Source of the DNA: Escherichia phage vB_EcoM_G2494
Sequence record: MK327935.1
Strand: one strand, 5' to 3'
Length of the DNA stretch: 64,000 nt
The position numbers and the translations under genes are program-made. This document shows positions 28,622-64,000 of the stretch, in pieces; within the stretch, counting starts at the first letter, position 1, and the number at the start of each line of letters is the position of its first letter. Under the pieces are notes generated by a model. The model did not search any database. It saw only the letters and a list, made by a program, of their open reading frames with translations, and was not told the DNA's origin.

Positions 28622-28679
28622 ATATATTATCATGCGGGGAGAAGTTCCCCGCCTAATTTCTCCCAATTCGAGGTGAATA

Positions 28680-50220: not shown

Positions 50221-50703
50221 TTTTGCTAAATCATTGCAATATTTTAGTGCCTTAGTTTGAAATTCTGCGCTGTTAAGTTCTTCATAACGGTCATAATCAC
50301 CGTTTAATGCTGCCTTTCTTGCTTCTTGCTCTATCTGCATGTCAGACATGATAATACAGCGATCCCGTGCTTTCATCTTCTCAAGTTGTATAGACTCTTC
50401 TTTCTGCTTGCGCAATTCTTCTTGACGCTTCTTTTCTTCTTGTGCTTTCTCTTCCCGCGCTTCTTTGATTGCATCCTTGAACATCTGCGTTTGTGGTGCT
50501 AAACCAACTTTAACGCGATCTACGTCTCGACGTTCCATTTTAGAAATAAAGCATGATTCGATCTTATCATCACTTGCATATGTTGCTTTACATTCACGAA
50601 GCAAGAAAACCGGATCTGATTTAGCATTCATCATAGCTTCCATGTTAGCACAACCAGTAAGCATGAATACAGCCGCAAGACCAATTAGTTTAATCATTTT
50701 CAT
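50218..50703 (-). CDS. lipoprotein
   Basis: 161 aa; signal peptide with lipobox LTGC; Glu/Lys-rich helical middle. Confidence 0.6.
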   Translation of the reverse strand: MKMIKLIGLAAVFMLTGCANMEAMMNAKSDPVFLLRECKATYASDDKIESCFISKMERRDVDRVKVGLAPQTQMFKDAIKEAREEKAQEEKKRQEELRKQKEESIQLEKMKARDRCIIMSDMQIEQEARKAALNGDYDRYEELNSAEFQTKALKYCNDLAK

Positions 50704-51524
50704 TTAGTCACCTCACCGAAAATTGTAAATTGTCTACGATTCTCATCGCCGAAAGATTCTACTACGTCGTTTACCTTGACGCAAGTCCCGCGCGGTAAAA
50801 TTACTTCACATTCGCAAGGGTTCCATGCAATGGACCCAACAACAAAACCTTTATGATCTTTTACATCAATCACCCATGATACATTACAAGAATGTTGCAT
50901 CTTTCCGGTCATTGATTCATATCGATTCTCACAATAAAGGCTAGTGCTGTTTGAAAGCCATCCTCCAAAGATGATCGGTGTCATGCTAGTAGATACAAAG
51001 TTTTTAAAGGTAAATTCCTTATCTTCAATAATACGCTCTATTGTCTGAATGTCAAGATGTTGACCGCGATAAAGAGTACCGTTTAACTTTTCGGTTTTAT
51101 CCATGACACAATCCATCAAATCAACAATCTCTGATATCTCATCGGTCATGTCTTCTTCCCCTAAGAGAGCACCATTTACCCATTCGTATTGTTCAGACAC
51201 ATAATCACAGATTGCATTATATTCTGCTGGGGTTATGTTGTTATGTTTGTAATGTTTGAATACATTATCTCCAAAGTCTTCGGAGTGTACTTCATACATC
51301 ACATTAATGATTTTCTTTACAAATCCATAATCTTGTGTCTCGCGCTCAAGGAAGCGGATAACCTTCACATAATCATCAAAGTTAATCTGATCGCTGATCA
51401 TTTCAGTGATCATGTAACCATTAATACCATCAATGTCATATGTTTCGATGTAATTATCCATACGTTCCATCATTGATTCGCGTGATTCTTCCGAAAGACG
51501 AAAATCCTGTAATTTCTTGAACAT
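50700..51524 (-). CDS. ADP-ribosyltransferase, short Alt/Mod-like paralog
   Basis: 274 aa; R-S-ExE motifs (LYRGQ, FVSTS, ECEVILPRG). Confidence 0.7.
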   Translation of the reverse strand: MFKKLQDFRLSEESRESMMERMDNYIETYDIDGINGYMITEMISDQINFDDYVKVIRFLERETQDYGFVKKIINVMYEVHSEDFGDNVFKHYKHNNITPAEYNAICDYVSEQYEWVNGALLGEEDMTDEISEIVDLMDCVMDKTEKLNGTLYRGQHLDIQTIERIIEDKEFTFKNFVSTSMTPIIFGGWLSNSTSLYCENRYESMTGKMQHSCNVSWVIDVKDHKGFVVGSIAWNPCECEVILPRGTCVKVNDVVESFGDENRRQFTIFGEVTK

Positions 51525-51546
51525 TTTAAACCTCCCATATAACAGA

Positions 51547-51585
51547 AAACGGGGCTAGTATAAAACTAGTCCCCGTTTGAGTCAA
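51547..51585 (-). promoter_or_regulatory. overlapping terminator hairpin and sigma70-type promoter
   Basis: minus strand TTGACT, 17-nt spacer, TATACT; spacer and -10 lie inside hairpin AAACGGGGCTAGT...ACTAGTCCCCGTTT. Confidence 0.5.
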
Positions 51586-51602
51586 CCATTATTTCTTAAA
51601 AA

Positions 51603-53654
51603 TTACATTTTAAATTTATCTGGCATTGCGTCTACCGATACCAGATCAGCGATAAGCTGACGTAGAGTTGCCTTATCTGCTTTCTTACGTTCGGTTTTAG
51701 CTTCGGTAATAAATCTGGAGAAAGACAGGTCAGAAGCAGGTTTAACAACACCTTCACGGATGAATGCATCACCGTCCGCGATCATCTCACCAGATTCTTG
51801 TAATGCTGCCAGTTCATTTTTGTTCATAATATGTGCCTCAATGTAATAAGTTTCTTGTGAATCCGTCGATGCCGTAGCACGAGTTACCGTATCAAAGGAT
51901 AACACAACACCGCGAGGAAGTAAAATCTCGCATTCTTTGTAAGCAAATGCTTTGTTACCTACTGGCAACACAGGGATGTTTTCCGCGCCAGCAATGGAGA
52001 AAGCAACATTAGCGCCACCTTCACCGCGAGAGCCAGCCATAGAATCAACACCAGCAACGGCACTAGCCACGTTTGCATTCCAGCCGCCAAAAATGTTAGG
52101 TGCAAGGGAAGTGCTCACATAGTTTTTAAAGTAAAACGCTTTTTGCTTACGTGCAGTTTCCCACATTTGCGACCGGAAGTCCATACCACGATACAGAATA
52201 GTACCCGGATCAAGTTTAACGCCATAGTTGGAGAAGGCATTATCCAGTGCATCACACATCTTGACCAATTCTTCTGGATCTGCGATGCCTTCAAACTCTT
52301 CCAGCTTACGGTCGGTTAGGAAGTTGTTCATATTGATGTATGCTGCATCGGCATATTCGCTCAACACAAAACCTTCCGCGCCTGGCAGATCAAGATCAAT
52401 ATTTGCCATCATTTCACCCATGTTGCTAGCAATTGCTTCAAACATACCGGAAGCAACATTACGTAGGGCATCGGTTTTAATCTGGGTGATATGACTACGC
52501 AGCATTTCAGCTTTTACATCTGCTGGCATAGACTGGTCTACTCGATCCATTGCCAGGGCGGTGATCTTGTTTTCGAATACTTCCTCGCTCATGATTTCTT
52601 TTAAGCGTTTGATTGATGCTGCGATAACTTCCGCAGACAACGGATCATATTGATCCTGAACTTTTACCAGTTCGCTTACTGCGTATTTTGCATCGGCTTC
52701 GCTTTCAAAAATAGTACGCATGAAACCATAGCGAGTGATAATATCACTTGTCCATTCATTCAGAGAACGGGCGGTTGAACGTTCTAAGGCTTGACGATCA
52801 ATCAGAGTATTAAACTGTTTCTTAGGTTCGGCTTCGGTGATATCTTCTTCCGGTTTAAGATTAATTTTTTCTGGATGATTCACATAGTCGCTGTTATAGG
52901 TCGCTTGAGTTTTCAGCATTTCTTCTTTAGTCAAACGAGATTTAGCCGCTACGCGTTGTTCCGCTTCCGCGTTTCGTTCTTCTTCTGACACCAGACTAGC
53001 CGCATACGCCTCATCTTTAGTCAGAGATTCACCAGTAGCCTTAGATACCCAGCGATCACCTAAATCACTTTCTACTTTAGTGAACAAGGAATCATCAAGT
53101 TTAATCCCTTTAATCTTATCAATCGCCATACCGCGACGTTTGACAACAACTAAAGCGATCTTTTTGCTGGTCATTACTTCCTGCTGGAATACTTCAAACT
53201 TCGGTGTACGACGCACCAAACGCTCTATAACGCGCTTAACCAGTTCGGTCTTACCTTTCATGCGGGATACGTTAAAACGGAACATAACAGCGTCTAATTG
53301 CGCTTTACGGGCTGTTTCCATAACCACATCAAAAGCACTTGCCATAACTGCAATCGGGTTATCGCCTAGACCATTTTTAAGCTGTACAATACGACCGCTT
53401 TTGTTCATTTCGCACAGTACAACATGTGCGGTCTTGTCACCCATACGAATGATTTTAGGTGTTTTGTTGGTGAAGTTACAAAGACGGACAATCACATCTT
53501 TATCGCGTGTCTGTACTGCAAAAAGCTGTTTAGGATTCTGCTTAGGCTTTAAGCACTGTACCGGAGCAATACTGCCAAAGTTTTCTTCCTCTTCCGTCAA
53601 CAGCCATTTCTCGAAAGATTCAATCATTAGATCGTCGATTTCTAAGTTAAACAT
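51603..53654 (-). CDS. alt: Alt ADP-ribosyltransferase
   Basis: 683 aa (T4 Alt 682 aa); C-terminal ART motifs ILYRGMDF, YVSTSL, ECEILLPRG. Confidence 0.8.
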   Translation of the reverse strand: MFNLEIDDLMIESFEKWLLTEEEENFGSIAPVQCLKPKQNPKQLFAVQTRDKDVIVRLCNFTNKTPKIIRMGDKTAHVVLCEMNKSGRIVQLKNGLGDNPIAVMASAFDVVMETARKAQLDAVMFRFNVSRMKGKTELVKRVIERLVRRTPKFEVFQQEVMTSKKIALVVVKRRGMAIDKIKGIKLDDSLFTKVESDLGDRWVSKATGESLTKDEAYAASLVSEEERNAEAEQRVAAKSRLTKEEMLKTQATYNSDYVNHPEKINLKPEEDITEAEPKKQFNTLIDRQALERSTARSLNEWTSDIITRYGFMRTIFESEADAKYAVSELVKVQDQYDPLSAEVIAASIKRLKEIMSEEVFENKITALAMDRVDQSMPADVKAEMLRSHITQIKTDALRNVASGMFEAIASNMGEMMANIDLDLPGAEGFVLSEYADAAYINMNNFLTDRKLEEFEGIADPEELVKMCDALDNAFSNYGVKLDPGTILYRGMDFRSQMWETARKQKAFYFKNYVSTSLAPNIFGGWNANVASAVAGVDSMAGSRGEGGANVAFSIAGAENIPVLPVGNKAFAYKECEILLPRGVVLSFDTVTRATASTDSQETYYIEAHIMNKNELAALQESGEMIADGDAFIREGVVKPASDLSFSRFITEAKTERKKADKATLRQLIADLVSVDAMPDKFKM

Positions 53655-53722
53655 TTTATATCCTCTAGTTGATAACCTATAAACCTATATTTATGAAAAC
53701 GGGGCTTAACGCCCCCTTTTTA

Positions 53723-53935
53723 TTATAATGCACCATCGAGCAATTGCTCTAAGGTGTATCCTGAATAGTCTTTTTCAATCAGGATATATTTTCCTACTCG
53801 TTTAATACAACCGCGCATTTCAACGTATTCTGCGTAGTTGATGGTACGAGTTGTTCCATCTTCCAGTAATGCAGTACCGATTTCGTTAATGCGGTCATAA
53901 GTTACGTCGGTAATGATGATTTCGATGTTAGCCAT
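53723..53935 (-). CDS. hypothetical small early protein
   Basis: 70 aa; early promoter and SD upstream. Confidence 0.4.
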   Translation of the reverse strand: MANIEIIITDVTYDRINEIGTALLEDGTTRTINYAEYVEMRGCIKRVGKYILIEKDYSGYTLEQLLDGAL

Positions 53936-53961
53936 TTGATACTCCTTAGTAGTTCGTTTCT

Positions 53962-53990
53962 GTATGTGTGTATTATGATATACACCCTCT
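53962..53990 (-). promoter_or_regulatory. sigma70-type early promoter
   Basis: minus strand GTTGTTGACA, 17 nt, CATAAT. Confidence 0.6.
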
Positions 53991-54005
53991 GTTATGTCAA
54001 CAACT

Positions 54006-54185
54006 TTTAGAACATTTTTGAAATTAATTCTGCTTTGATTTCGCAGAGAACATCTAAAGATTTCTCGTCACCCGCTTTTGCTGCTTCTGCTTGCATTTTT
54101 GAAATGGCTTCAATCTCAGTGCAATTATAAGCCGCTTGAACTTTAGCGATTGCGAGGATTGCCGATTCGATGGTTAAGTGTTTTA
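54006..54185 (-). CDS. small early ORF lacking a canonical start codon (ATA where paralogous contexts have ATG)
   Basis: conserved RBS GGAGAATCAAAC then ATA AAA CAC...; 60-codon open frame; early promoter upstream. Confidence 0.3.
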
Positions 54186-54217
54186 TGTTTGATTCTCCTT
54201 TCGTTTCGGTATGTGTG

Positions 54218-54246
54218 TATTATAGGGGATCGATGATCCCCTGTCA
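54218..54246 (-). promoter_or_regulatory. sigma70-type early promoter with palindromic spacer
   Basis: TTGACA-ggggatcatcgatcccc-TATAAT on minus strand. Confidence 0.65.
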
Positions 54247-54255
54247 ACAACTTTT

Positions 54256-54810
54256 TTAGTTATTTTTTAATTGCTCATCTTGCAATAGGGCAATCACATG
54301 CTGGCGATGTTCTTCCGATTGAGGCACACCGAAAAAGTTTGTTTTGTAGAAATACTCTAATCGGTCTTCTCGTGTGCTCTCTTCCATCATGATCGCGGGT
54401 AGTCCGAGATTTCGGAAACGTCGCTTTTCTGCTGGCGTAAAATCACTGTAATACATCATAGAATCATCATTACCAGCAATGCTAAACTCATCCTTCATGA
54501 AGGAGAATATTGCGTTTAAACGCTGTTTACCGTCCACGATTTCGATCTCATAGCGAGAGCCATCATCAATCTTAGCCATTGCGATAGCACCAACCGGAAA
54601 ATCATTAATCAGGTTTTCGATAAACATACGTTTGTTTTCGGTGTCCCATACTAAAGGACGCTGATAATCTGGGTTCATGTTGATATAGCCATCTTCTAAC
54701 CATGCATCATAAACAGAGATGACAAAGTTTTTAGTATTGGTATAGTAACGGCGTTTAGGCGTTAAACGGTTCATGTTATAGTCTCCTGAATGGATCATCA
54801 CGTAAATCAA
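54256..54810 (-). CDS. DUF262 / ParB-like nuclease-domain protein
   Basis: 184 aa; NPDYQRPLVW ... IVDGKQRLNAIFSF match the DUF262 N-terminal and DGQQR-type motifs. Confidence 0.55.
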   Translation of the reverse strand: MIYVMIHSGDYNMNRLTPKRRYYTNTKNFVISVYDAWLEDGYINMNPDYQRPLVWDTENKRMFIENLINDFPVGAIAMAKIDDGSRYEIEIVDGKQRLNAIFSFMKDEFSIAGNDDSMMYYSDFTPAEKRRFRNLGLPAIMMEESTREDRLEYFYKTNFFGVPQSEEHRQHVIALLQDEQLKNN

Positions 54811-55105
54811 TATCTTTTAAGAACTCATCCCATGAATGGCGGATATTGTTCTTAATTCTCCAGATAAGAGCAGGGATTGAACGCTCTCCCATCTGGAAGT
54901 ATGGATCATATGATCCGTATGCCCAATATGCTACTACAATTCCACAATCAGCGCAATAGTATTCTATTTCACTTGCTGGCGACAAAAGTCCATCAATATG
55001 ATCGGTGATCTTGCTTTCGATGTTATGGCTATGACAATCAGGGCAACGGATGCAATGACCTTGTTTATCGTAATTTGATGTTAGTGAATACTTAAACAAT
55101 CTCAT
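54776..55105 (-). CDS. zinc-ribbon protein
   Basis: 109 aa; CIRCPDC...CADCG. Confidence 0.45.
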   Translation of the reverse strand: MRLFKYSLTSNYDKQGHCIRCPDCHSHNIESKITDHIDGLLSPASEIEYYCADCGIVVAYWAYGSYDPYFQMGERSIPALIWRIKNNIRHSWDEFLKDIDLRDDPFRRL

Positions 55106-55821
55106 TATAGATCCTTATTTGCTTCAAATACTGCCTTTGCGAATCCTCGCGGGGTAAGTGACCTTATAGTCTTTGTTTTCGTTCCTTTCCCGCCTAGCTT
55201 AGAATGCTGTTTACTGTACCCTTTATTAATCTGCAACGGTTTCTTTTCTGGCATTATAAAGCCTTGTCCGGTCCATAAGCAAGTCTTTTTTGGGTACATA
55301 TCACGGGCGGCAATATACTCAGGAAACGTAGGATGCTTATCATCTTCCGGCAAATAACCGCCATATTCCCACGGATGGAACATATAATCAGGCTTACGCC
55401 ACATGCTAGAGATAACGCTTACAGGATTCTCTATCATGTAGGGAACTCCTAGCCATTCACCCAAATAAGCGGTTATTTTGGCTGCCCTTACATCATGAAC
55501 TTGAATCAATGGTCCTTGTTCTCGTTTCTTTCGTTCAAAGTGCGCAGCGCCACTAACAGCTAAATTGGTGCATGGTGGGAATGCAAAGATAATATCCGGT
55601 TTCCCCCATTCAAGGTCCATTGCTCTTTCTAGCCAGTTAAAATCAATCCATGTGTTTACATAGGTAATGTTTGGATGTTCAAATCTGGTATTATACTTTT
55701 TGTATGTTCCGTGGTCGCCATCGTCAGCATTAAAGCAGATCACCTTATGACCTGCTTTAGCCCATTCTAACCCCATTATCCCCGATCCGTCAAAGTTACA
55801 GAATATTAATTTTTGTTTCAT
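55105..55821 (-). CDS. C5-cytosine methyltransferase-like protein (divergent, short)
   Basis: 238 aa; motif I-like FCNFDGSGIMG, motif IV-like FAFPPCTNLAVSG (PCT instead of PCQ), motif VI-like YMIENPVS, C-terminal RSLTPRGFAKAV; no obvious target recognition domain. Confidence 0.45.
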   Translation of the reverse strand: MKQKLIFCNFDGSGIMGLEWAKAGHKVICFNADDGDHGTYKKYNTRFEHPNITYVNTWIDFNWLERAMDLEWGKPDIIFAFPPCTNLAVSGAAHFERKKREQGPLIQVHDVRAAKITAYLGEWLGVPYMIENPVSVISSMWRKPDYMFHPWEYGGYLPEDDKHPTFPEYIAARDMYPKKTCLWTGQGFIMPEKKPLQINKGYSKQHSKLGGKGTKTKTIRSLTPRGFAKAVFEANKDL

Positions 55822-56063
55822 ATACGCCCCTTTAATCCAACACAGATTTTAGAAGGTTCTTTGCCGTGCCACATTAAGTAAAGTCCGTTAATGCGGCCTT
55901 GTTTTGTATATGATTCTTTTCTGATCTTCTTATAGTGTCGTGCTTCCTCAGCCGATTGTTTAGAATACCAATCATAAAGGAAGAGGCACAAAGGCCACCC
56001 ATTAGCGGCCTTAATGCAGTTATTAAGAAATTCCTTATTGCGTTTAATTAATTTTCTTTTCAC
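55818..56063 (-). CDS. hypothetical early protein
   Basis: 81 aa, overlapping start/stop with neighbours (operon). Confidence 0.4.
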   Translation of the reverse strand: MKRKLIKRNKEFLNNCIKAANGWPLCLFLYDWYSKQSAEEARHYKKIRKESYTKQGRINGLYLMWHGKEPSKICVGLKGRI

Positions 56064-56311
56064 GCTGCCCCCATTGGTTTGATAGTAACAGAATCTAAAA
56101 GACCTTTGTTAGCCAGTTCGCGGCAAGTTTTCAGATCCGCAACTTCCCAGCCAGCCGCAATCAGGTTATCAATGAGGCTGTTAGCAACTTCTTCGCTCAT
56201 GAAAGAGCACTGTTTGCCGATGGTGTAGCGTACACGCTGTAATTTCAGTTTACGGAAGCCTTTAACGTTCAGGTCTTTAGCGATTTTCTTTGCGGTTTCG
56301 ATGTTAGCCAT
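56060..56311 (-). CDS. hypothetical early protein
   Basis: 83 aa, first gene behind the promoter at 56352-56380. Confidence 0.4.
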   Translation of the reverse strand: MANIETAKKIAKDLNVKGFRKLKLQRVRYTIGKQCSFMSEEVANSLIDNLIAAGWEVADLKTCRELANKGLLDSVTIKPMGAA

Positions 56312-56351
56312 TGTTTGATTCTCCTAAGTGGTATCTCGTCTTGATGGTTGT

Positions 56352-56380
56352 ATTGTAGGGGAGTTATCCTCCCCTGTCAA
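56352..56380 (-). promoter_or_regulatory. sigma70-type early promoter with palindromic spacer
   Basis: TTGACA-ggggaggataactcccc-TACAAT on minus strand. Confidence 0.6.
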
Positions 56381-56394
56381 CACTTTTTATAAAA

Positions 56395-56562
56395 TTATTT
56401 GTTAATTTCCGGTGCGTTGCTTGGATAGTAACCTTCTTTAACACCCAGGTATTTCGCAACCATCCCTACAATCTTCTGTGCTACTACAATGTCAAATTTC
56501 AGATAATCTTCGCCGTGGGTTTCAATGATATATGCTTCACATGCTGCTTTAGTCTCGAACAT
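56395..56562 (-). CDS. small early protein (55 aa), paralog of 60188..60355
   Basis: MFETKAACEAYIIETHGEDYLKFDIVVAQKIVGMVAKYLGVKEGYYPSNAPEINK; below ORF-track cutoff; conserved RBS GGAGAATCAAA. Confidence 0.5.
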   Translation of the reverse strand: MFETKAACEAYIIETHGEDYLKFDIVVAQKIVGMVAKYLGVKEGYYPSNAPEINK

Positions 56563-56595
56563 TTTGATTCTCCTATTTCGTTTCGTTATGTGTGT

Positions 56596-56624
56596 ATTAT
56601 AGGGGATCTCCCGATCCCCGTCAA
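56596..56624 (-). promoter_or_regulatory. sigma70-type early promoter with palindromic spacer
   Basis: TTGACG-gggatcgggagatcccc-TATAAT on minus strand. Confidence 0.6.
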
Positions 56625-56637
56625 CAACTTTTTAAAA

Positions 56638-57111
56638 TTATTTGCACCAAATTCGAATGATTTCGTCTCGTTCAAATTTTTGCCAGATTACTCGGTCGCC
56701 CGCTGCCATAATCCTGACAAATCCAGTTATATTTCCGGTGTACTTGCTTTTAGTTTCTGCATCATATTCAAAGAATGGAGCTTTAAGATCGCTAAACTCA
56801 TCTTTTCCCACAAACTTCATAACATGACGGTGTGCGTAATATTCGCTTCTTAGTGTTGTTGTGATAGTTCCGTCATCATTTGATTTCAGATGCAATTCGG
56901 CATCTTCATAAAGACTTGCATCTCGTTGTTTACTTTCGATACCATCATTATATGTTGATTTGGTTGCACTCCAACATTGATATGTCTTATCTACATTTTC
57001 GATCTTTTCCTGTGTCATGTCAAAAAGCGGCGCAACCTTTTTCTTAGCCGCGTGCGCAACGTTGGTCATAGACAGTGCCGCAACAACCGCAATAGCAATA
57101 ATTTTCTTCAT
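56638..57111 (-). CDS. secreted/periplasmic protein
   Basis: 157 aa; N-terminal signal peptide MKKIIAIAVVAALSMTNVAHA. Confidence 0.55.
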   Translation of the reverse strand: MKKIIAIAVVAALSMTNVAHAAKKKVAPLFDMTQEKIENVDKTYQCWSATKSTYNDGIESKQRDASLYEDAELHLKSNDDGTITTTLRSEYYAHRHVMKFVGKDEFSDLKAPFFEYDAETKSKYTGNITGFVRIMAAGDRVIWQKFERDEIIRIWCK

Positions 57112-57172
57112 AATATCATCTCCTTTGGTTTATATGGCGGGAGTATCTTAGCAATACTCCCTTAATACTATA

Positions 57173-57454
57173 TTATTCGTGATTAGTTTCGATGTTGTGC
57201 ATTTTGCACCAGTTCAGCCAATCGCCCAGATCTTGATAGTTGATGCTTTTATCTGCTGCCATCGTTTTTGTCTTGATACCCATATGTGCGTTATGAGTAA
57301 GCATTTTTACAGTGAACTCAATTTTATCACCTTTAGCTTTAACATCAACCAGTTTGGTCCACTGGCTACCAGCGCCGCGAATGTTCATACCAACGATGTT
57401 TCCGATGTATGCTTCTTTGTTTTTCAGGATTTCGGTTGCTTTGATGAATTTCAT
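57173..57454 (-). CDS. hypothetical early protein
   Basis: 93 aa; promoter 57488-57516 and RBS upstream. Confidence 0.45.
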   Translation of the reverse strand: MKFIKATEILKNKEAYIGNIVGMNIRGAGSQWTKLVDVKAKGDKIEFTVKMLTHNAHMGIKTKTMAADKSINYQDLGDWLNWCKMHNIETNHE

Positions 57455-57487
57455 TTTTGATTCTCCAGTTCGTTTCGGTATGGGTGT

Positions 57488-57516
57488 ATTATGCTATGTT
57501 CTTACTTTGGTGTCAA
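57488..57516 (-). promoter_or_regulatory. sigma70-type early promoter
   Basis: TTGACA, 17 nt, CATAAT on minus strand. Confidence 0.55.
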
Positions 57517-57524
57517 CAACTTTT

Positions 57525-57794
57525 TTAGATATTTTCAGAAATAAATTTTAAAACTTGACGTAAATGTTTCTCGTCTTTGATAGTCGCCGGAAGTTCTTCT
57601 TTTACTTCCTGTGCAAGATAGATATTTCCGTTCCAAGTGAAAGATCCGTCTTCGTTTACGCGATAGCTGAACATCCACTCGCAATCATTTTCGATTTCAT
57701 ATACACACAGAAGGGTGTAATCTTCAAAGCTATTGATTTCAAGGTCGAAGCCGTGACGTTTTGCAAAGTTGGTAGTGGTTTTAGTCAGTGCCAT
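57525..57794 (-). CDS. hypothetical early protein
   Basis: 89 aa; RBS GGAGAATCAAACA-ATG. Confidence 0.45.
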   Translation of the reverse strand: MALTKTTTNFAKRHGFDLEINSFEDYTLLCVYEIENDCEWMFSYRVNEDGSFTWNGNIYLAQEVKEELPATIKDEKHLRQVLKFISENI

Positions 57795-57834
57795 TGTTTG
57801 ATTCTCCTAAGTGGTATCTCGTTTCGATGTGTGT

Positions 57835-57863
57835 ATTATGCTATAGGCGTGATCTGGTGTCAA
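57835..57863 (-). promoter_or_regulatory. sigma70-type early promoter
   Basis: TTGACA, 17 nt, CATAAT on minus strand. Confidence 0.55.
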
Positions 57864-57920
57864 TGCCTTTTTTAAAATTTTATGCAATAAAAAAGCCGAC
57901 ACTAAGGTCGGCTAATAAAA

Positions 57921-58229
57921 TCATTTAGACAAATAATCATTCTGTGCAATCCGGTCGGCGTATGCTGGTGTTATGTCAATCGCCAGCACTTTAACGCGTG
58001 CTTTCTTGCGACCTGGGTTTTCTCGTAACCAGTGCTCATGACCGTGAACATTTTTATACTGCGATGCTTCTTCGAAGGTACGGATCGGACCTGGGTAATC
58101 AGCGTAAAGGATCTCTAGATCTTCGGTGATGTAAAAATATACATCGTAATTGCTGTTCTCTAGCTTAAGCAGAGACTTTCGGAACATTGGGAGATTTTCG
58201 CGGGTAAATTCAAAGATATTATCTTTCAT
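57921..58229 (-). CDS. HxHW-family small early protein (paralog 1 of 7)
   Basis: 102 aa; YFYITEDLEILY ... HGHEHW ... VLAIDI. Confidence 0.5.
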   Translation of the reverse strand: MKDNIFEFTRENLPMFRKSLLKLENSNYDVYFYITEDLEILYADYPGPIRTFEEASQYKNVHGHEHWLRENPGRKKARVKVLAIDITPAYADRIAQNDYLSK

Positions 58230-58279
58230 AGTATTATCCTCAATAGTTGGATGAAAAGGGGGGCTTAACGCCCCGTATA

Positions 58280-58567
58280 TTAAAACAGTCCTTCCTGTAC
58301 ACCGTAGTAGAGTTCATCGCTGATAATTTCATTAATGCGACGGTGTGCATATTCCTGATTTGCGAAGTTGTCAGCAAGTTCTACTTTAGTTTCGCCGTCA
58401 TGAGTCCATTTAGTGATAACTTTACCATCTGCAAATTTGAAGTTGAACTCTTTAGCTACCGCATCGCGTACCAGACGTGCAAACTTATTGTTGCGGATTG
58501 CATTGTCGGTTTCGTGTTCAGCGTGAGCGAATTTGTTAACTTTCAGAGTGATAGTAATGTATGCCAT
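58280..58567 (-). CDS. small early protein, AKEFN-motif family (paralog of 61845..62156)
   Basis: 95 aa; ARLVRDAVAKEFNFKF vs AILIREVRKALAKEFNTKI in the other copy. Confidence 0.45.
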   Translation of the reverse strand: MAYITITLKVNKFAHAEHETDNAIRNNKFARLVRDAVAKEFNFKFADGKVITKWTHDGETKVELADNFANQEYAHRRINEIISDELYYGVQEGLF

Positions 58568-58613
58568 AATTTGATTCTCCTAGTTAGAAAGTGTATCTCG
58601 TTTCGATGGGTGT

Positions 58614-58642
58614 ATTATGCTATACACCCGATCTTATGTCAA
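58614..58642 (-). promoter_or_regulatory. sigma70-type early promoter
   Basis: TTGACA, 17 nt, CATAAT on minus strand. Confidence 0.55.
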
Positions 58643-58648
58643 CACTTT

Positions 58649-58927
58649 TTATAAAATAATTTTTTGATATTTTTCTATGATGTTTGTGTAGGTCACATCA
58701 ACCGCGAGCACCGTTGCTTCGAATCCACCGTTTAGCCAATGGCTATGATCGTGATCGTTAAAGAAACCGAGGCCAGTGCGAAGACCTTCTTTATATTCGG
58801 CGCGTACATTCAGTTTGTCGTCGATAAACAGATAAAACCATGAATTTTTACTAGGATTGATGATACAACCTTTCAGATTAGGGAGAATATCACGACTAAG
58901 AATAAACTTATCACCTACTTTGAACAT
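58649..58927 (-). CDS. HxHW-family small early protein (paralog 2)
   Basis: start taken at ATG 58925-58927 (MFKVG; track ORF starts at a GTG at 58942); FYLFIDDKLNV ... HDHSHW ... VLAVDV. Confidence 0.5.
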   Translation of the reverse strand: MFKVGDKFILSRDILPNLKGCIINPSKNSWFYLFIDDKLNVRAEYKEGLRTGLGFFNDHDHSHWLNGGFEATVLAVDVTYTNIIEKYQKIIL

Positions 58928-58931
58928 AATA

Positions 58932-59252
58932 TTAGTCCTCACTTATAAGGTCAAACCAATTGTTTTTCGCATAATGCTTAATGCGTGCTTGATCTGCTTC
59001 CGCTGGTGATAGATTCCATGCGATCACTACAACTTCTGACGCATCGTCATCCGTTTCTGATATCCAATGATTGTGATTCATACAGTTATTTGCTATCGCG
59101 TGAGCAAATGATCTCATTACTGGAGACGTATAATCATAGTAACGGATTTTCAGATTTTCATCAACGTACAAATAGATCGTATAAGGTTTATATTCAGTAA
59201 CCAGTAACAGACAGTTACGCAATTCTGGGAAAATCTTTTTAGTTAATTTCAT
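58932..59252 (-). CDS. HxHW-family small early protein (paralog 3)
   Basis: 106 aa; IYLYVDENLKI ... NHNHW ... VVVIAWNL. Confidence 0.5.
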   Translation of the reverse strand: MKLTKKIFPELRNCLLLVTEYKPYTIYLYVDENLKIRYYDYTSPVMRSFAHAIANNCMNHNHWISETDDDASEVVVIAWNLSPAEADQARIKHYAKNNWFDLISED

Positions 59253-59454
59253 AGTCTATTTCTCCGTAATACACGGTAATCCATTTTTCTTCATACTTTG
59301 TATCTTTCCAACACACAATCCCGTTTACTGTGCAATCTTTGGAATTGACGAATGATTCATATTGTTCTGCGTCTTCCATCATTGCATGAGCGGTCTTTTC
59401 ATCGAATATATCGCAGATCGCTTTATATGCTCAATAATCTTTAAATTTGCTCAT
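59239..59454 (-). pseudogene. tandem paralog of 59457..59666 with in-frame TGA at codon 8
   Basis: MSKFKDY-TGA-AYKAICDIF...AMMEDAEQYESF... parallels MSKFKDYKAYQQILRVY...KMMEDASKCPSF... of upstream copy. Confidence 0.4.
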
Positions 59455-59456
59455 AA

Positions 59457-59666
59457 TTAAGACCACTCAAGAGTTTTTGAAAACACATCTATCCATTGTT
59501 GAGTATATGCGGTTTCTTTCCATGATACAATACCAGTAGAATAATGGTTTTTGTTTCCAGAAAAGGACGGGCATTTTGATGCGTCTTCCATCATCTTTTC
59601 GGCGAACTCTGGTTCGTATACTCGCAAGATCTGTTGATATGCTTTGTAGTCTTTAAATTTGCTCAT
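59457..59666 (-). CDS. small early protein (69 aa)
   Basis: intact copy of a tandem gene pair. Confidence 0.45.
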   Translation of the reverse strand: MSKFKDYKAYQQILRVYEPEFAEKMMEDASKCPSFSGNKNHYSTGIVSWKETAYTQQWIDVFSKTLEWS

Positions 59667-59931
59667 AATCGTTAACTACCTTATCAGCTTCTTTTATTGT
59701 TTTTACATCAACTGCGATAACCCGTAAAGGTTCGTCATGGTTCCACCAATGATCGTGAATATCGGCTTGTGATTTATCACCAAAGGAATCACGAATATCA
59801 TTTTTACATTTATAGCTAATGTGACCTTCATAGTCAACATAAAGGTAATTATCGAAAATCGGCGTTTTTAAGATCATACCGAAAAATCTTTCTTTGTGTG
59901 TCTTATCCAGTGTTGCAGTAATTCGCATCAT
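59653..59931 (-). CDS. HxHW-family small early protein (paralog 4)
   Basis: 92 aa; NYLYVDYEGHI ... HDHWW ... VIAVDV. Confidence 0.5.
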   Translation of the reverse strand: MMRITATLDKTHKERFFGMILKTPIFDNYLYVDYEGHISYKCKNDIRDSFGDKSQADIHDHWWNHDEPLRVIAVDVKTIKEADKVVNDYEQI

Positions 59932-59943
59932 AATATATTCCTC

Positions 59944-60123
59944 TTAGAAAGGGATGGTCATTTCTTGAGCTTGTACATTCTCGTTAGGATTAAACTTCAT
60001 CCAACCGATATTGTCTACCAGCATATGCACATTTTTATCATATCCTACGTGAGTAGTCAACACTAAATGTGATTTACCTTCAACGATGATTTCCATGTAC
60101 TTCTGAACTTCGATAGCTTTCAT
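59944..60123 (-). CDS. small early protein (59 aa)
   Basis: RBS GGAGAATCAAA-ATG; MKAIEVQKYMEIIVEGK...; below ORF-track cutoff. Confidence 0.4.
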   Translation of the reverse strand: MKAIEVQKYMEIIVEGKSHLVLTTHVGYDKNVHMLVDNIGWMKFNPNENVQAQEMTIPF

Positions 60124-60155
60124 TTTGATTCTCCGTTTGTTGTCTTGATGGGAGT

Positions 60156-60184
60156 ATCTTACTACTCCCTTTAATCATTGTCAA
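60156..60184 (-). promoter_or_regulatory. sigma70-type early promoter
   Basis: TTGACA, 17 nt, TAAGAT on minus strand. Confidence 0.4.
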
Positions 60185-60187
60185 CGA

Positions 60188-60355
60188 TTATTTGTTAATT
60201 TCCGGTGCGTTGCTTGGATAGTAGCCTTCTTTAACACCCAGATATTTTGCAACCATTCCGGTGATCTTCTGTGCTACTACGATATCGAATTTCAGGTAGT
60301 CTTCACCGTGGTTTGCTACAATGTATGCTTCGCATTCTGCTTTAGTCTGGAACAT
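60188..60355 (-). CDS. small early protein (55 aa), paralog of 56395..56562
   Basis: MFQTKAECEAYIVANHGEDYLKFDIVVAQKITGMVAKYLGVKEGYYPSNAPEINK; track ORF extended to 60448 runs through the promoter and is rejected. Confidence 0.5.
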   Translation of the reverse strand: MFQTKAECEAYIVANHGEDYLKFDIVVAQKITGMVAKYLGVKEGYYPSNAPEINK

Positions 60356-60389
60356 TTTTGATTCTCCTATATCTCGTTGGTATGTGTGT

Positions 60390-60418
60390 AGTATAGGGGA
60401 TCGGTGATCCCCTGTCAA
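60390..60418 (-). promoter_or_regulatory. sigma70-type early promoter with palindromic spacer
   Basis: TTGACA-ggggatcaccgatcccc-TATACT on minus strand. Confidence 0.6.
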
Positions 60419-60428
60419 CAACTTTTTT

Positions 60429-60737
60429 TTATTCTTCATCTTCATCATTATCTTTATATGCGTACTTCATAAATTTGTCTGCTACTTCGTCCGCGTTTTC
60501 AGGTTCTACGTCTGACGCTAGGACAACAGCTAGTTCGGTTTTGTCGTTTCCATCATACCAATGATTATGAGTGTCGTTTTCTTCGATATAAAACGAATCA
60601 GTTGGAGTTGTGCGACAATATACGTCTAAATTCCCATCGATATAAAAGATCCAATCCGAATACAAAATGATTGTTTTAGCAAGATTTTTATTGTCTCTCA
60701 CAAAAGGTTCTGAGACAAATAGCTTAGTTTGTTCCAT
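60429..60737 (-). CDS. HxHW-family small early protein (paralog 5)
   Basis: start at ATG 60735-60737 (MEQTK) with SD GAGGA; IFYIDGNLDVY ... HNHW ... VVLASDV; acidic tail. Confidence 0.5.
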   Translation of the reverse strand: MEQTKLFVSEPFVRDNKNLAKTIILYSDWIFYIDGNLDVYCRTTPTDSFYIEENDTHNHWYDGNDKTELAVVLASDVEPENADEVADKFMKYAYKDNDEDEE

Positions 60738-60753
60738 AACATTTTCCTCAAAA

Positions 60754-60945
60754 TTATACAGCTTCGTAAACTTCCCAATGTCCAGCGCCAACACGCTTAA
60801 CGAAAAGGTTTTCTTTGATGTTATTCATAAACGTCTGGATGGATTTAATGCGGTTTGAAGGTTTCCAGTCTTCGTTGGAATTGCGTCGATACATCATAAC
60901 ATTACCAGTTCGCTTATATTCAGCAACCATTTTAAGACCATACAT
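60754..60945 (-). CDS. hypothetical small early protein
   Basis: 63 aa ORF ending immediately before RBS of next gene. Confidence 0.35.
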   Translation of the reverse strand: MYGLKMVAEYKRTGNVMMYRRNSNEDWKPSNRIKSIQTFMNNIKENLFVKRVGAGHWEVYEAV

Positions 60946-60996
60946 AATATTATCATCAATTTGTGGGAGAGTATTACCCTCCCGATTATTGTTATA

Positions 60997-61305
60997 CTAC
61001 ATTACGCAAAATGGCGTGTCAATACTTCTTTTTGCTGTTCCGCTAAGATTCTCGATCTCTCCTGGCATAACATCAACCGCCAGAACTTCTACAACATCCT
61101 CTGATCCTAACCAGTGAGTATGACCTTTGTAGAACTTGATATCCCATTTATCGCTATCGCTAGCCCACCACACATCACCGTCTATAAAGTTGATGTAAAG
61201 CACACTACGACACATTGAATTAGTTACTTTCAATACTGCGCCTTTCATCTCTTCCACGGTATGGTCTTCCATTTTGAAGACCTCGCCTACCTTAACTTTT
61301 GCCAT
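60997..61305 (-). CDS. HxHW-family small early protein (paralog 6)
   Basis: start at ATG 61303-61305 (MAKVKVG); LYINFIDGDVWW ... HTHW ... VLAVDV. Confidence 0.5.
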   Translation of the reverse strand: MAKVKVGEVFKMEDHTVEEMKGAVLKVTNSMCRSVLYINFIDGDVWWASDSDKWDIKFYKGHTHWLGSEDVVEVLAVDVMPGEIENLSGTAKRSIDTPFCVM

Positions 61306-61306
61306 G

Positions 61307-61573
61307 TTACATGTTCCGAATATGTTTAGATGCATCTTCCAGTTCGTCGATAGTGACACTGTGAGCCAGTAAGTGTACTGGTTGTGGTTCTTCACCTTCC
61401 ATAGTATTGATCAGATGACCGTTTCCTGGGTGGAATGTATCGTTGCCGTTCCAAATAGCATACACATCATCTTCTGTTACGTAGATAATAAGTCCAATCG
61501 GTGATTCTGGTAATTGAAAAATTTTACCCACTGCATCTTTGCGATTGTCTACGATATCTTTGACTGTCTTCAT
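61307..61573 (-). CDS. HxHW-family-related small early protein (paralog 7, motif degenerate)
   Basis: 88 aa; LIIYVTEDDVYAI conserved strand, GNGHLI in place of HxHW. Confidence 0.45.
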   Translation of the reverse strand: MKTVKDIVDNRKDAVGKIFQLPESPIGLIIYVTEDDVYAIWNGNDTFHPGNGHLINTMEGEEPQPVHLLAHSVTIDELEDASKHIRNM

Positions 61574-61582
61574 TTAGTTACC

Positions 61583-61762
61583 TCTCTTTAAATTACATCA
61601 CAATCACGCCAGCCGTAGAAAGTTGATGTTTCAACTGAGCATTTTCTGCTACTGTCAAATCAATAATTTCTTGTGACGCTGCAATCATATAGCCATTGGT
61701 GATATTGTTTTGCATCAGTTCAATGGTTTCTTCGTTGTAGCGGATTTTAGCGATGATTTCGT
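61583..61762 (-). CDS. small early protein (59 aa)
   Basis: RBS GGAGAATCAATT-ATG; MNFNEIIAKIRYNEETIELMQ...; below ORF-track cutoff. Confidence 0.4.
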
Positions 61763-61806
61763 TGAAGTTCATAATTGATTCTCCTAGTTCGTTTCGGTAT
61801 GTGTGT

Positions 61807-61836
61807 ATTATAGGGGAGTTTAACCTCCCCTGTCAA
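61807..61836 (-). promoter_or_regulatory. sigma70-type early promoter with palindromic spacer
   Basis: TTGACA-ggggaggttaaactcccc-TATAAT on minus strand. Confidence 0.6.
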
Positions 61837-61844
61837 CAACTTTT

Positions 61845-62156
61845 TTAAAGTTTTTCCATGATAACGGTCATAATTACATCTTCTGCGCGAGCGGTCAGAT
61901 TATCAGCGTCAGCATGTGGGCGGTTGGTTGTTACAGAGATAACACCGTTGCGCACTGGTTTGATATTGATATCAAGATGATCCGCGAAACGTTCGCCAGT
62001 TACAGAATGAATTTTGGTGTTAAATTCTTTTGCCAGTGCCTTGCGAACTTCACGAATCAGGATAGCGTTTTTCAGTTGGTTCTCCGCGCTCATGGTCTTC
62101 TGGGTGTTCATGGTTCCGTCGAAGTCAATCATTGGCAGCGTTACGATGTATTTCAT
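61845..62156 (-). CDS. small early protein, AKEFN-motif family
   Basis: 103 aa; paralog of 58280..58567. Confidence 0.45.
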   Translation of the reverse strand: MKYIVTLPMIDFDGTMNTQKTMSAENQLKNAILIREVRKALAKEFNTKIHSVTGERFADHLDINIKPVRNGVISVTTNRPHADADNLTARAEDVIMTVIMEKL

Positions 62157-62201
62157 TTTTGATTCTCCGTTTAAGAAAGTGTGTTTCGTTTTGATGTGTG
62201 T

Positions 62202-62230
62202 AGTATAGGGGATACGTGATCCCCTGTCAA
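62202..62230 (-). promoter_or_regulatory. sigma70-type early promoter with palindromic spacer
   Basis: TTGACA-ggggatcacgtatcccc-TATACT on minus strand. Confidence 0.6.
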
Positions 62231-62322
62231 CAACTTTTTTGAATTATTTTTTCATGAGCTTAATGGCTTCTTCCATAGCCAGCACATTTCGATAGTTAGG
62301 GTATCGTGTTAGATCGTCATAC

Positions 62323-62354
62323 ATTCGCTTAAGGGTGGATTCGCTTAAGGGTGG
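62323..62354. repeat. perfect 16-bp tandem duplication (attcgcttaagggtgg x2)
   Basis: copies at 62323-62338 and 62339-62354. Confidence 0.8.
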
Positions 62355-62589
62355 AAACTTCCTCAAACTCTGGGTTTTCTAGATACAGTTGAACAAATTG
62401 TTTCTCTACCATCTCGGCTTTTAGCTTGTCTGCTTGTTCCTGTTCATATGATTTAGTTGGACCCAACACCAACAAAATGATAAAGGTGATCAACGATAGG
62501 AGAACATAACCGATAACGCTACGGTTTAAACGGCTTGCGTACATGCCTACCAGGAAAACAAAAAGGATATAGATAAACAGAAAGAACAT
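62329..62589 (-). CDS. small membrane protein, C-terminus truncated by a 16-bp tandem duplication
   Basis: 86 aa with two hydrophobic segments; removing one repeat copy extends the frame to ~109 aa ending at ~62244. Confidence 0.5.
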   Translation of the reverse strand: MFFLFIYILFVFLVGMYASRLNRSVIGYVLLSLITFIILLVLGPTKSYEQEQADKLKAEMVEKQFVQLYLENPEFEEVSTLKRIHP

Positions 62590-62596
62590 ATAATGG

Positions 62597-63070
62597 TTAC
62601 TCCTTATTTTCGCGCTCGTACTTTTCGAAATAAAATTCTACTGGCTGGTCGTGGATTGACAGTAAGCCAAAGCGTTTAGCCGCTCGCAATCCCATATTGC
62701 GCTGAATGTACTTCTGGAAGTTCTCGCGTATACACTTACGCCAGTATTCTAAGCCCATACAGCTTTTGTAAAGATTGCATTGCACACAAGCCGGATTCAT
62801 ATTATCAAGTATATCGTGCTCCGGTTTATGCATTCCTACAACCTTATACTTCCACGATCCATCATCATTACGGGCAATTCGTCCATTTTCATCATAGACT
62901 ACCTTTGAGCGTCGCAATACTGGTTTGATGTGGTCTGCGTGCCATCGGTCCCCTAGTTCCTCGCCACAATAGGCACAACGCCCACCGTATTTCATTTTCA
63001 GGATCTGGCGTTGCTCTTTCTTTGACAATTTTTTAGGTTTAGGGGCTTTCGCCCCTTCATTATCACACAT
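62597..63070 (-). CDS. HNH endonuclease
   Basis: 157 aa; CAYCGEELGDRWHADHIKP ... NMNPACVQCNLYK HNH/zinc-finger motifs; basic N-terminus. Confidence 0.65.
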   Translation of the reverse strand: MCDNEGAKAPKPKKLSKKEQRQILKMKYGGRCAYCGEELGDRWHADHIKPVLRRSKVVYDENGRIARNDDGSWKYKVVGMHKPEHDILDNMNPACVQCNLYKSCMGLEYWRKCIRENFQKYIQRNMGLRAAKRFGLLSIHDQPVEFYFEKYERENKE

Positions 63071-64000
63071 CGAATACCTCTTTTACTGTATTTGCAGTGG
63101 TCTTGTCGTAGCGAATACGTTTGATGATCGGGAGAAATAAAGAGAACTCCGGTTCATCTTCTTTACGTGATTTGCTGCGGATATACCCGTTGCATGTCAT
63201 CTCAATGACTTTTCCAATCAGGTTATGACGGTCAGCCCATAACATTTCTCGGTCGAGTTCATTTCGACGATCGAACGGAATTACACGTTCAGTACCATCA
63301 TCACCTTTTTCGGTTGTAGTGTCGGTTAATCCCGATCCGGTGTTAGTCATCATTCGTCCGCACGCACTACGGACAGTAAAACCGCCTACCTTATTGGGGT
63401 CTTTACTATGCGGATATGCATCAACAATTTCCGCGTCGAAGTCAATCACTTCTTTAAATTTAACCTGATCTTTACTACGGCGATCTTCAAATACACCATG
63501 TAAATTTTTAAGGATAATACCTTCTAAGCCCATGTTTACATAGCGATGATATACTTCGCGAGCTTCATCGATATTGTTAACTACAGTGTTTTCGATTATC
63601 TGAACACGAGGATCGTTAAGTTCTTCAACAATCTGTTTTAGTTCTTCGAATCGATCTTTATATTGCTTCGTTGCTTTCTCGTTTCCGTAATACACATCAC
63701 GGTCGATAACATCCCAGACAGTGTAAACAATACATTGGGCTTCTTCTTTTGGAATAGTTCCTTTAAGTGATTTGTTGAGGATACCATTTCCGGTCTGACG
63801 ATCTGCAACAACGGATTCTTTCACTGCTTCCGCTACTGGCGTTAATGGCATTTCCTCTTCTTCAAATATCCATGACAGAGTACCATCATAAACGCTTTCA
63901 ACGAAGTTCTGCGCTGGTGTTTGCGAAAGGGTAGGCATATATACCAATTCGCCATCTAGAACAATTCCACGGCCTCGTAGACGCTCTAAAACCGCAAACA
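63063..64000 (-). CDS. 30: ATP-dependent DNA ligase gp30, C-terminal part (gene continues beyond window end)
   Basis: ligase motifs EGIILKN and DQVKFK; track ORF starts at an internal Met (63947) but the frame is open to the window edge. Confidence 0.7.
   Translation of the reverse strand, partial: FAVLERLRGRGIVLDGELVYMPTLSQTPAQNFVESVYDGTLSWIFEEEEMPLTPVAEAVKESVVADRQTGNGILNKSLKGTIPKEEAQCIVYTVWDVIDRDVYYGNEKATKQYKDRFEELKQIVEELNDPRVQIIENTVVNNIDEAREVYHRYVNMGLEGIILKNLHGVFEDRRSKDQVKFKEVIDFDAEIVDAYPHSKDPNKVGGFTVRSACGRMMTNTGSGLTDTTTEKGDDGTERVIPFDRRNELDREMLWADRHNLIGKVIEMTCNGYIRSKSRKEDEPEFSLFLPIIKRIRYDKTTANTVKEVFDV

Follow-up and report, generated by a model that had tools for sequence, protein, structure and literature searches.

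Between the gp30 DNA ligase gene and alt, the genome of Escherichia phage vB_EcoM_G2494 carries a run of small minus-strand genes, most of which have a nearly invariant cassette upstream, and several of the early promoters in these cassettes hold a palindrome in the spacer between their -35 and -10 boxes. We read this region directly (positions 51400-62400, minus strand) within a 64,000-nt stretch of sequence record MK327935.1, hereafter the window. The region is 95-97% identical to Krischvirus phages, for example RB49, Phi1, GEC-3S, ECD7, and G2248, and the source of the window, as judged from these comparisons, is a Krischvirus (RB49/phi1-like T4-type coliphage). The locus is a hyperplastic region, equivalent to phi1 ORF182-212 and RB49 ORF183-213 (ORF, open reading frame), and small hypothetical ORFs occupy the gp30-alt interval in every annotated relative.

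Architecture of the spacer-palindrome promoters

Six minus-strand promoters (Table 1; sites are named below by their higher coordinate) share a layout in which TTGACA or TTGACG is followed by GGGGAT(N)ATCCCC or GGGGAG(N)CTCCCC, and then by TATAAT, TATACT, or TACAAT. A perfect inverted repeat of 6-7 bp fills the 17-nt spacer (18 nt at 61836), and RNAfold predicts that the final base of the -35 box also pairs (A-U) with the first base of the -10 box. All six had been listed in a first-pass annotation of the window, and all are present, five at the positions given there and one displaced by a single base (54219, rather than 54218). The -35 box is preceded by GTTGTTGAC at five of the six sites and by AGTGTTGACA at 56380, and reads TTGACG at 56624. 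The promoters match the sigma-70 consensus TTGACA-N17-TATAAT at 11-12 of 12 positions, the 20 nt 5' of the -35 box are 80-90% A+T with a TAA stop codon 8-20 nt before the box, and the hairpin lies 15-25 nt past the stop codon of the upstream gene. Five sites continue into GGAGAATCA and then ATG, while at 54190 the Shine-Dalgarno sequence (SD) is followed by ATA. The whole cassette, of ~100 bp, thus runs from an A-rich tract bearing the stop codon of the upstream ORFan, through (G)TTGTTGACA, the hairpin-filled spacer, and a -10 box that takes the forms TATAAT, TATACT, and CATAAT across the region, to a conserved leader (ACACACATACCGAAACGA), the SD (GGAGAATCAAA), and ATG. Folded as RNA, the cassettes reach -11.7 to -19.4 kcal/mol (z-scores -2.3 to -5.1), and the spacer hairpins alone -10 to -15 kcal/mol in the sense RNA. 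A search of positions 50500-64000 against Rfam 15 returned no family, the sole match being to a chance-level snoRNA (21.9 bits against a gathering threshold of 50; E 0.63).

The palindromic spacers are non-random and far exceed chance expectation. Of the 42 sites in the 64-kb window that fit TTGAC-N-[T/C]AnnnT, six harbor in their spacer a perfect inverted repeat of 6 bp or longer, against a mean of 0.054 when the spacers are subjected to mononucleotide shuffling; six were reached in none of 2000 shuffles, and the per-site probability ranges from 0.0002 to 0.004. The enrichment that the first-pass annotation had asked to see tested against shuffled spacers is therefore borne out. Further, all GGGGA[T/G]..[A/C]TCCCC hairpins in the window fall within these six spacers.

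Table 1. Promoter cassettes and associated features of the gp30-alt region of vB_EcoM_G2494
Feature	Position	Strand	Description
PeSL211/210	62202-62230	-	TTGACA, hairpin GGGGATCACGTATCCCC (62208-62224), TATACT; drives ORF210 homolog 62156-61845
PeSL210/209	61807-61836	-	TTGACA, GGGGAGGTTAAACTCCCC (61813-61830, 18-nt spacer), TATAAT; -15.6 kcal/mol, z -3.2
PeSL206/205	60390-60418	-	TTGACA, GGGGATCACCGATCCCC (60396-60412), TATACT; drives ORF205 homolog; core identical to phi1 copy L003:2736
PeSL192/191	56596-56624	-	TTGACG, GGGATCGGGAGATCCCC (hairpin 56602-56619), TATAAT; drives ORF191 homolog, a paralog of ORF205
PeSL191/190	56352-56380	-	TTGACA, GGGGAGGATAACTCCCC (56358-56374), TACAAT; -19.4 kcal/mol, z -4.6
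PeSL187/186	54219-54247	-	TTGACA, GGGGATCATCGATCCCC (54225-54241), TATAAT; -16.7 kcal/mol, z -5.1
PeSL after alt	51547-51585	-	TTGACT-N17-TATACT (51557-51585); spacer and -10 inside hairpin 51547-51578
PeSL199/198, -10-overlapping subclass	58608-58642	-	TTGACA-N17-CATAAT; hairpin GGGTGTAT-agcata-ATACACCC (58608-58629)
PeSL205/204, -10-overlapping subclass	60150-60184	-	TTGACA-N17-TAAGAT; GGGAGTA-gtaaga-TACTCCC (60150-60169); -15.7 kcal/mol, z -4.6
Upstream-stem-loop subclass	57835-57913	-	Terminator AGCCGAC..GTCGGCT+T6 (57894-57913), then TTGACA-N17-CATAAT (57835-57863)
Downstream-stem-loop subclass	60965-61022	-	Promoter-like TTGACA-N17-TAGTAT (60994-61022), then GGGAG-ggtaatact-CTCCC (60965-60983)
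Early promoter of same family, no stem-loop	57488-57516	-	TTGACA-ccaaagtaagaacatag-CATAAT; -2.0 kcal/mol, z +0.15
PeSL186/185	53972-54000	-	TTGACA-N17-CATAAT; weak 6-bp GTGTAT/ATACAC repeat around -10
PeSL193/192 position	57139-57161	-	Stem-loop GGGAGTAT-tgctaag-ATACTCCC; TAAGAT -10-like box; left end of ORF192 cassette
Indel without cassette boundary	61571-61305		265-nt ORF
Indel without cassette boundary			ORF189.1
Indel without cassette boundary			747-nt deletion of ORF211 and ORF210; right end 6 nt beyond cassette limit
ORFs with common C-terminal pattern	57921-58229, 58649-58942, 58932-59252, 59653-59931, 60997-61395	-	See text

Identity with promoter-early stem-loops

We consider it highly probable (roughly 0.85) that these early-promoter palindromes are promoter-early stem-loops (PeSLs), a type of composite regulatory cassette found in RB49/phi1-type phages (Krischvirus). 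This element is not new: it received its name, a classification, and partial testing in 2010, from work on this phage group and this locus, when Arbiol, Comeau, Kutateladze, Adamia, and Krisch defined PeSLs in RB49 and phi1 (Arbiol et al., 2010; Genome Biol Evol 2:140; PMC2839356); the first-pass annotation, which described the palindromes, missed this identity. In the published classification the stem-loop, usually polyG...polyC, takes one of five positions relative to the promoter, of which that in the -35/-10 spacer is among the two commonest, and around 50 PeSLs were counted per genome (Arbiol et al., 2010). The RB49/phi1 stem-loop was termed 'GN-loop-CN', and the concept extended to T4/PST and KVP40/nt-1, in later work (Comeau, Arbiol and Krisch, 2014; PMC4122927).

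The six sites display the features that mark a PeSL, namely a promoter, an AT-rich tract bearing a stop codon, a stem-loop, an SD with a start codon, a hyperplastic locus, and an association with insertions and deletions (indels). The tie to the published elements is direct, because the 62230 cassette matches RB49 PeSL211/210 (NC_005066) along the ~95 nt of the comparison, phi1 PeSL206/205 is identical to the 60418 cassette in its -35 box, hairpin, and -10 box, and the window carries an RB49-type ORF192 cassette. These two published copies are also those with functional data, in that the drop in downstream lacZ expression caused by the PeSL211/210 stem-loop was close to that with rrnB T1, and the PeSL206/205 promoter yielded ~13,000 Miller units; -35 or -10 box mutations were acquired by most of the clones made from intact PeSLs (Arbiol et al., 2010). 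The window copies of these two cassettes share the cores of phi1 PeSL206/205 and RB49 PeSL211/210, respectively, and may have the same promoter activity and terminator or attenuator activity; that the spacer hairpins of the window terminate efficiently in the phage context is our inference.

With the PeSL known since 2010, the identification carries little weight as discovery. Its value is in annotation, as the cassettes are mostly unmarked in the GenBank records of these phages, or are marked only as 'promoter' or 'terminator' (the GEC-3S record already marks these sites as promoters); and recognizing PeSLs explains why gene content at this locus differs among therapeutic coliphages which are otherwise 95-97% identical.

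Conservation of the stems

Cassettes were catalogued in the window and in 13 related loci, and the set of spacer variants was drawn from 11 genomes. Stem pairs were tabulated for each sequence with RNAfold; a MAFFT alignment of 20 spacer variants was set aside, as gaps placed outside the loop showed it to be out of structural register. The 28 distinct spacer variants in the 11 genomes differ in their loops while keeping their stems: eleven loops were found (ACC, GGT, ATC, GCC, ACA, CACGT, CACAT, GGGA, TGGA, GATAA, and GTTAAA), with a twelfth, GGC, in KFS-EC. The two stem types, GGGGAT/ATCCCC and GGGGAG/CTCCCC, differ at one pair, T:A in the former and G:C in the latter, which is a compensatory change. 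In three variants an A to G substitution in the stem creates a G.U pair on the sense strand, at a cost of 0.4-0.6 kcal/mol to the sense hairpin versus 2.7-5 kcal/mol to the antisense hairpin, and the opposite, antisense-sparing pattern occurs in none of the 28 variants. One variant is disruptive and one has lost a G. Covariation extends to the -10-overlapping class, in which the stem GGGTGTAT...ATACACCC of the window and two relatives is represented in most others by GGGGATAT...ATATCCCC, amounting to two compensatory pairs. At individual sites, the 56380 spacer is identical in 10 of 13 relatives (Phi1 has one additional C, and the site is absent from JK32), and the ortholog of the 61836 site in GEC-3S, Phi1, and ECD7 is the variant GGGGATCGGGAGATCCCC. 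Together, these patterns indicate that the structure of the spacer hairpin is under selection.

Recombination between cassettes

Arbiol et al. (2010) proposed that PeSLs recombine with one another, and that the ORFans on their flanks are thereby deleted, inserted, and shuffled via mini-circles, with RB49 ORF192 and ORF210 as examples; mini-circles of both were detected by inverse PCR during infection, and less than 50 bp of homology was held to be enough for T4-type recombination. The alignment of 11 relatives with the window revealed eight indel events with 14 distinct boundaries, eight of which lie inside cassettes, which make up ~12% of the region (binomial P ~8e-5). A single chimeric cassette stands in place of two cassettes and the intervening gene at ORF186 (in RB49-OZ, Sf20, JK32, pEJ01, and Cognac, and, by its alignment junction, in ECD7), at ORF191 (JK32), and at ORF210 (SFHK24 and JK32). 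In relatives without ORF186 the recombining partners are the 54247 and 54000 cassettes, and the deletion junction has an overlap of 42-56 nt in the conserved leader. At the 57863 cassette, RB49, TB34, Sf20, and JK32 have a 406-nt insertion of ORF195/196 with a 97-nt repeat of that cassette on both flanks. The 529-nt ORF192 cassette of the window, which is bounded by the stem-loop at 57139-57161 (boundary 57172) and, on the right, by the 56624 cassette, is missing from 10 of the 11 aligned relatives and present in the RB49 reference. Duplication is also evident, in that PeSL plus ORF205 (60436-60187) and PeSL plus ORF191 (56635-56394) are ~84% identical; in phage Cognac (L103:5701-6203) the ~4 kb between these duplicates is gone, and one ORF205/191-type gene adjoins ORF190.

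At orthologous positions in different genomes the hairpin variants differ within the same flanks, a swapping of variants which points to conversion between cassettes. Recombination between cassettes as a route of ORFan exchange is thus supported directly by the sequence comparisons, and the suggestion in the first-pass annotation that the palindromic promoters mark a hotspot which shuffles early gene cassettes agrees both with the published proposal (Arbiol et al., 2010) and with the chimeras, boundaries, and variant swaps found here. Within the phage collection the 88-nt cassette is confined to RB49-like entries: 58 phage records carry it, at 6-10 locations in each genome, and every one bears the name of an Escherichia, Shigella, or Enterobacteria phage or of Krischvirus. 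A spacer-neutral scan of viral contigs for the promoter pattern returned 90 stretches, nearly all of them lone chance matches in unrelated contigs, with two Krischvirus contigs, and was not used.

Proposed mechanism

Given the sequence and standard sigma-70 geometry, host RNA polymerase would be expected to start ~7 nt past the -10 box, so the spacer hairpin would never form part of its own cassette's transcript, and could act as RNA only on transcripts which read through from upstream, or else as DNA. We propose that polymerase coming in from the gene upstream reads across the palindrome, and that the hairpin then formed in the nascent RNA (-10 to -15 kcal/mol) causes attenuation or termination of the upstream transcript, which would render each small gene an insulated transcription unit. 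We favor attenuation of sense read-through because the stems are conserved and the loops free to vary, G.U pairs are tolerated on the sense strand, the hairpins are placed just after stop codons, and the published reporter result is of this kind. In addition, near-identical cassettes of ~100 bp, repeated every 250-1500 bp, would provide a substrate for T4-type homologous recombination, and exchange between them could delete, insert, duplicate, or swap ORFans.

Several observations weigh against this account. The six spacer hairpins are not followed by a U-tract, their tails being UAUAAUAC or UAUACUAC (3-4 U in 8), and a scan for consensus terminators, which requires 5 or more T in 8, selects none of these hairpins (tails TATAATAC or TATACTAC); the same scan does detect canonical hairpin plus T-run terminators nearby, at 58260-58274, 57894-57913, and 53701-53715. 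The published terminator test comprised one stem-loop in a plasmid reporter (Arbiol et al., 2010). Further, to the sense G.U asymmetry the spacer class contributes three A to G variants, which are related and affect a single stem position, and the -10 class contributes one; G-run expansion could instead account for it. As for recombination, in three of the eight indel events all boundaries fall outside the cassettes as defined here (Table 1), and PeSLs are therefore not the sole route to indels.

Alternative explanations

The missing U-tract is what would be expected if the hairpin served chiefly as a 3'-end stabilizer or processing signal, protecting the upstream mRNA, once terminated or cleaved elsewhere, against 3' exonucleases rather than terminating it, and both the position of the hairpin 15-25 nt past the upstream stop codon and the preservation of stems at the level of sense RNA, with G.U pairs tolerated, would suit such a role. 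We nonetheless consider this unlikely, as the drop in reporter expression caused by PeSL211/210 is comparable to that of rrnB T1 (Arbiol et al., 2010), beyond what a stabilizer alone would do, and no processing site is evident. Transcription from the opposite direction has also to be considered. The first-pass annotation raised a structure that blocks antisense read-through, and a block to read-through does accord with the published terminator or attenuator function, but the strand concerned is the sense strand, read from the upstream gene. Although folding of the plus strand is equal or slightly better (-13 to -16 kcal/mol), and a T6 run follows on that strand, the run does not begin until 10 nt past the stem, with TGTCAACAAC between, and those A to G variants that are tolerated destabilize the antisense hairpin by 2.7-5 kcal/mol and the sense hairpin by only 0.4-0.6. 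Moreover, GEC-3S has, in the interval from the last early gene to gp54, a terminator annotated on both strands (L001 11921-11939) which already keeps this region apart from the converging late genes, and hairpins whose function is to stop plus-strand transcription from entering the early region seem to us very improbable. Least credible is an operator, also put forward in the first-pass annotation, at which a dimeric phage or host repressor would shut the early promoters. A perfect palindrome placed exactly between the -35 box and the -10 box is where a bound protein would block polymerase, and four of the six palindromes have one or two GATC (Dam) sites each; yet the spacing of the half-sites is 3, 4, 5, or 6 nt rather than fixed, a half-site may be GGGGATC or GGGGAGG with the change matched on the other arm, G.T variants occur, promoters of the same family have the hairpin elsewhere or none, and no cognate regulator is evident. 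T4-type phages shut off their early promoters via AsiA and ADP-ribosylation and are not known to use operators for this, and an alt homolog is present in the same region as the palindromic promoters.

A further alternative places the main action of the hairpin in DNA, where a folded or cruciform site, comparable with integron attC, would be bound by a structure-specific protein that targets recombination, any effect on transcription being secondary. A DNA-level role in recombination was raised by the original authors (Arbiol et al., 2010), and would accommodate the movement of hairpin variants among orthologous sites, as well as the occurrence of reverse-complement pairs among the 3-nt loops (ACC/GGT and GCC/GGC), which fit an occasional fold-and-flip of the palindrome. 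Against this, the region has no annotated integrase or recombinase, the chimeras have their junction overlaps in the conserved leader or in the upstream A-rich tract, away from the hairpin, cassettes with no hairpin, or with one elsewhere, join in the same events, and G.T variants weaken the DNA hairpin on one strand. As T4-type recombination needs less than 50 bp of homology, no special recombination site is required, and we regard a primarily DNA-level function as distinctly unlikely. In a compound version, slimmer again in our estimation, the palindrome would attenuate transcription and, beyond that, fold in single-stranded or supercoiled DNA, where a putative phage protein would catalyze cassette excision and insertion, leaving the ACC/GGT and GCC/GGC loops as footprints; if true, this would amount to integron-like, hairpin-targeted gene shuffling in a lytic T4-type phage.

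The reverse-complement loops, which sometimes occupy orthologous sites, also fit inversion of the whole palindrome, for instance by template switching. The chance of one such pair among five 3-nt loops is ~0.15, falling, by a hand estimate, to ~0.02 with the second pair (KFS-EC/SFHK24); the variants are related by single mutations, and the two pairs are hence not independent. The statistical support is weak, and the loops could alternatively derive from another cassette by conversion.

Comparison with known systems

The cassettes of the window resemble the RB49/phi1 PeSLs in genus and locus, in their near-consensus sigma-70 promoter, A-rich stop-bearing tract, G4-loop-C4 in the spacer, and conserved leader with SD, and in their link to ORFan indels and chimeric cassettes. 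They differ in isolate detail only, that is, in the particular combination of loop variants, the RB49-type ORF192 cassette, ORF211, and three apparently damaged ORFans. The PeSL and PmSL motifs of T4/PST and KVP40/nt-1 (Comeau et al., 2014; Genome Biol Evol 6:1611; PMC4122927) share the design of promoter plus stem-loop, the setting in hyperplastic regions, and the gene swaps, but use TTTACW-N17-TAYWAT or TTGYVH-N17-TAWWAT promoters with AGNA-loop-TCNT or A3-4G3-loop-C3T3-4 stems; they are analogues, not sequence homologues, of the window cassettes. With intrinsic (Rho-independent) terminators the six spacer hairpins share a GC-rich stem, here of 7-8 bp and -10 to -15 kcal/mol, just past a stop codon, but they have UAUAAU or UAUACU in place of a U-tract.

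The comparison of PeSLs with integrons and morons was drawn by Arbiol et al. (2010). As with integron attC cassettes, small single genes are mobile as units between repeated hairpin-forming sites, and as with phage morons, a small mobile gene carries its own promoter and terminator. Unlike in these systems there is no integrase, each cassette has its own strong promoter, and exchange is apparently by general homologous recombination across ~100 bp of conserved sequence. An inverted repeat in the -35/-10 spacer also recalls the synthetic promoters of Horwitz and Loeb, which in 1988 were reportedly regulated by cruciform extrusion of a palindromic spacer; by contrast, the arms here are 6-8 bp and the loops 3-6 nt, and arms of this length are probably too short for stable cruciform extrusion in vivo.

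Other early promoters of the region

A seventh promoter (51557-51585), reported in the first-pass annotation as having its spacer and -10 box inside a 13-bp hairpin, is as described. The hairpin (51547-51578) has 13 bp with one bulge, folds at -18.9 kcal/mol, and is followed by UUUUC; by reading of the sequence it conforms to the intrinsic-terminator rule, and 51547-51585 is a canonical intrinsic terminator fused to a promoter. The site is identical in all 12 relatives whose locus covers it; the GEC-3S record marks it as a promoter, the TB34 record as a terminator.

The accompanying statement that other early promoters of the region lack the palindrome was true of 57516, which is the only one of them without any hairpin. 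At 58642 and 60184, and weakly at 54000, an inverted repeat overlaps the -10 box, while 57863 has a terminator just upstream and 61022 a stem-loop downstream (Table 1).

Neighboring genes and further sequence features

The GGGGATC...GATCCCC stems at 54225-54241, 56602-56619, 60396-60412, and 62208-62224 each place one or two GATC (Dam) sites in the spacer, and the region also contains a methyltransferase gene (55105-55821). The ORF192-type gene (56638-57111, minus strand) encodes a 157-aa protein with a signal-peptide-like segment, MKKIIAIAVVAALSMTNVAHA, at its N-terminus.

Three ORFans within 8 kb appear damaged, namely the homologs of ORF211, ORF186, and ORF201. In the ORF211 homolog (62329-62589, minus strand), a 16-bp tandem duplication (CCACCCTTAAGCGAAT twice, ~62334-62365), absent from G2248, Sf20, and the RB49 reference, causes a frameshift which leaves a small membrane protein of 86 aa versus ~114. 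The ORF186 homolog begins with ATA here (54187-54189, minus strand) versus ATG in all six relatives which keep the gene, and may be silent in this isolate, or the difference may be a sequencing error. Codon 8 of the ORF201 homolog (59239-59445, minus strand) is TGA (~59424) versus CGA in GEC-3S, Phi1, SFHK24, ECD7, and JK32; its neighbor, ORF202, is a paralog which shares the MSKFKDY start. Further, at least five small minus-strand ORFs between 57921 and 61395 have a common C-terminal pattern, roughly H-x-HW...(V/I)(L/I)A(V/I)D(V/I), and look like a paralogous ORFan family which expanded within the hyperplastic region.

Elsewhere in the window, perfect CGGGGAG-N3-4-TCCCCG hairpins of similar G4/C4 style occur at 6927-6943, 28089-28105, and 28635-28651, in the plus-strand part and outside the early region. 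Finally, at ~800-860 on the minus strand, the arms ATTTTAGCACCCT...AGGGTGCTAAAAT form an inverted repeat of 13-14 bp whose loop holds a promoter-like TTGATA-N16-TATAAT (first base 843), the 70-nt stretch folding at -27 kcal/mol.

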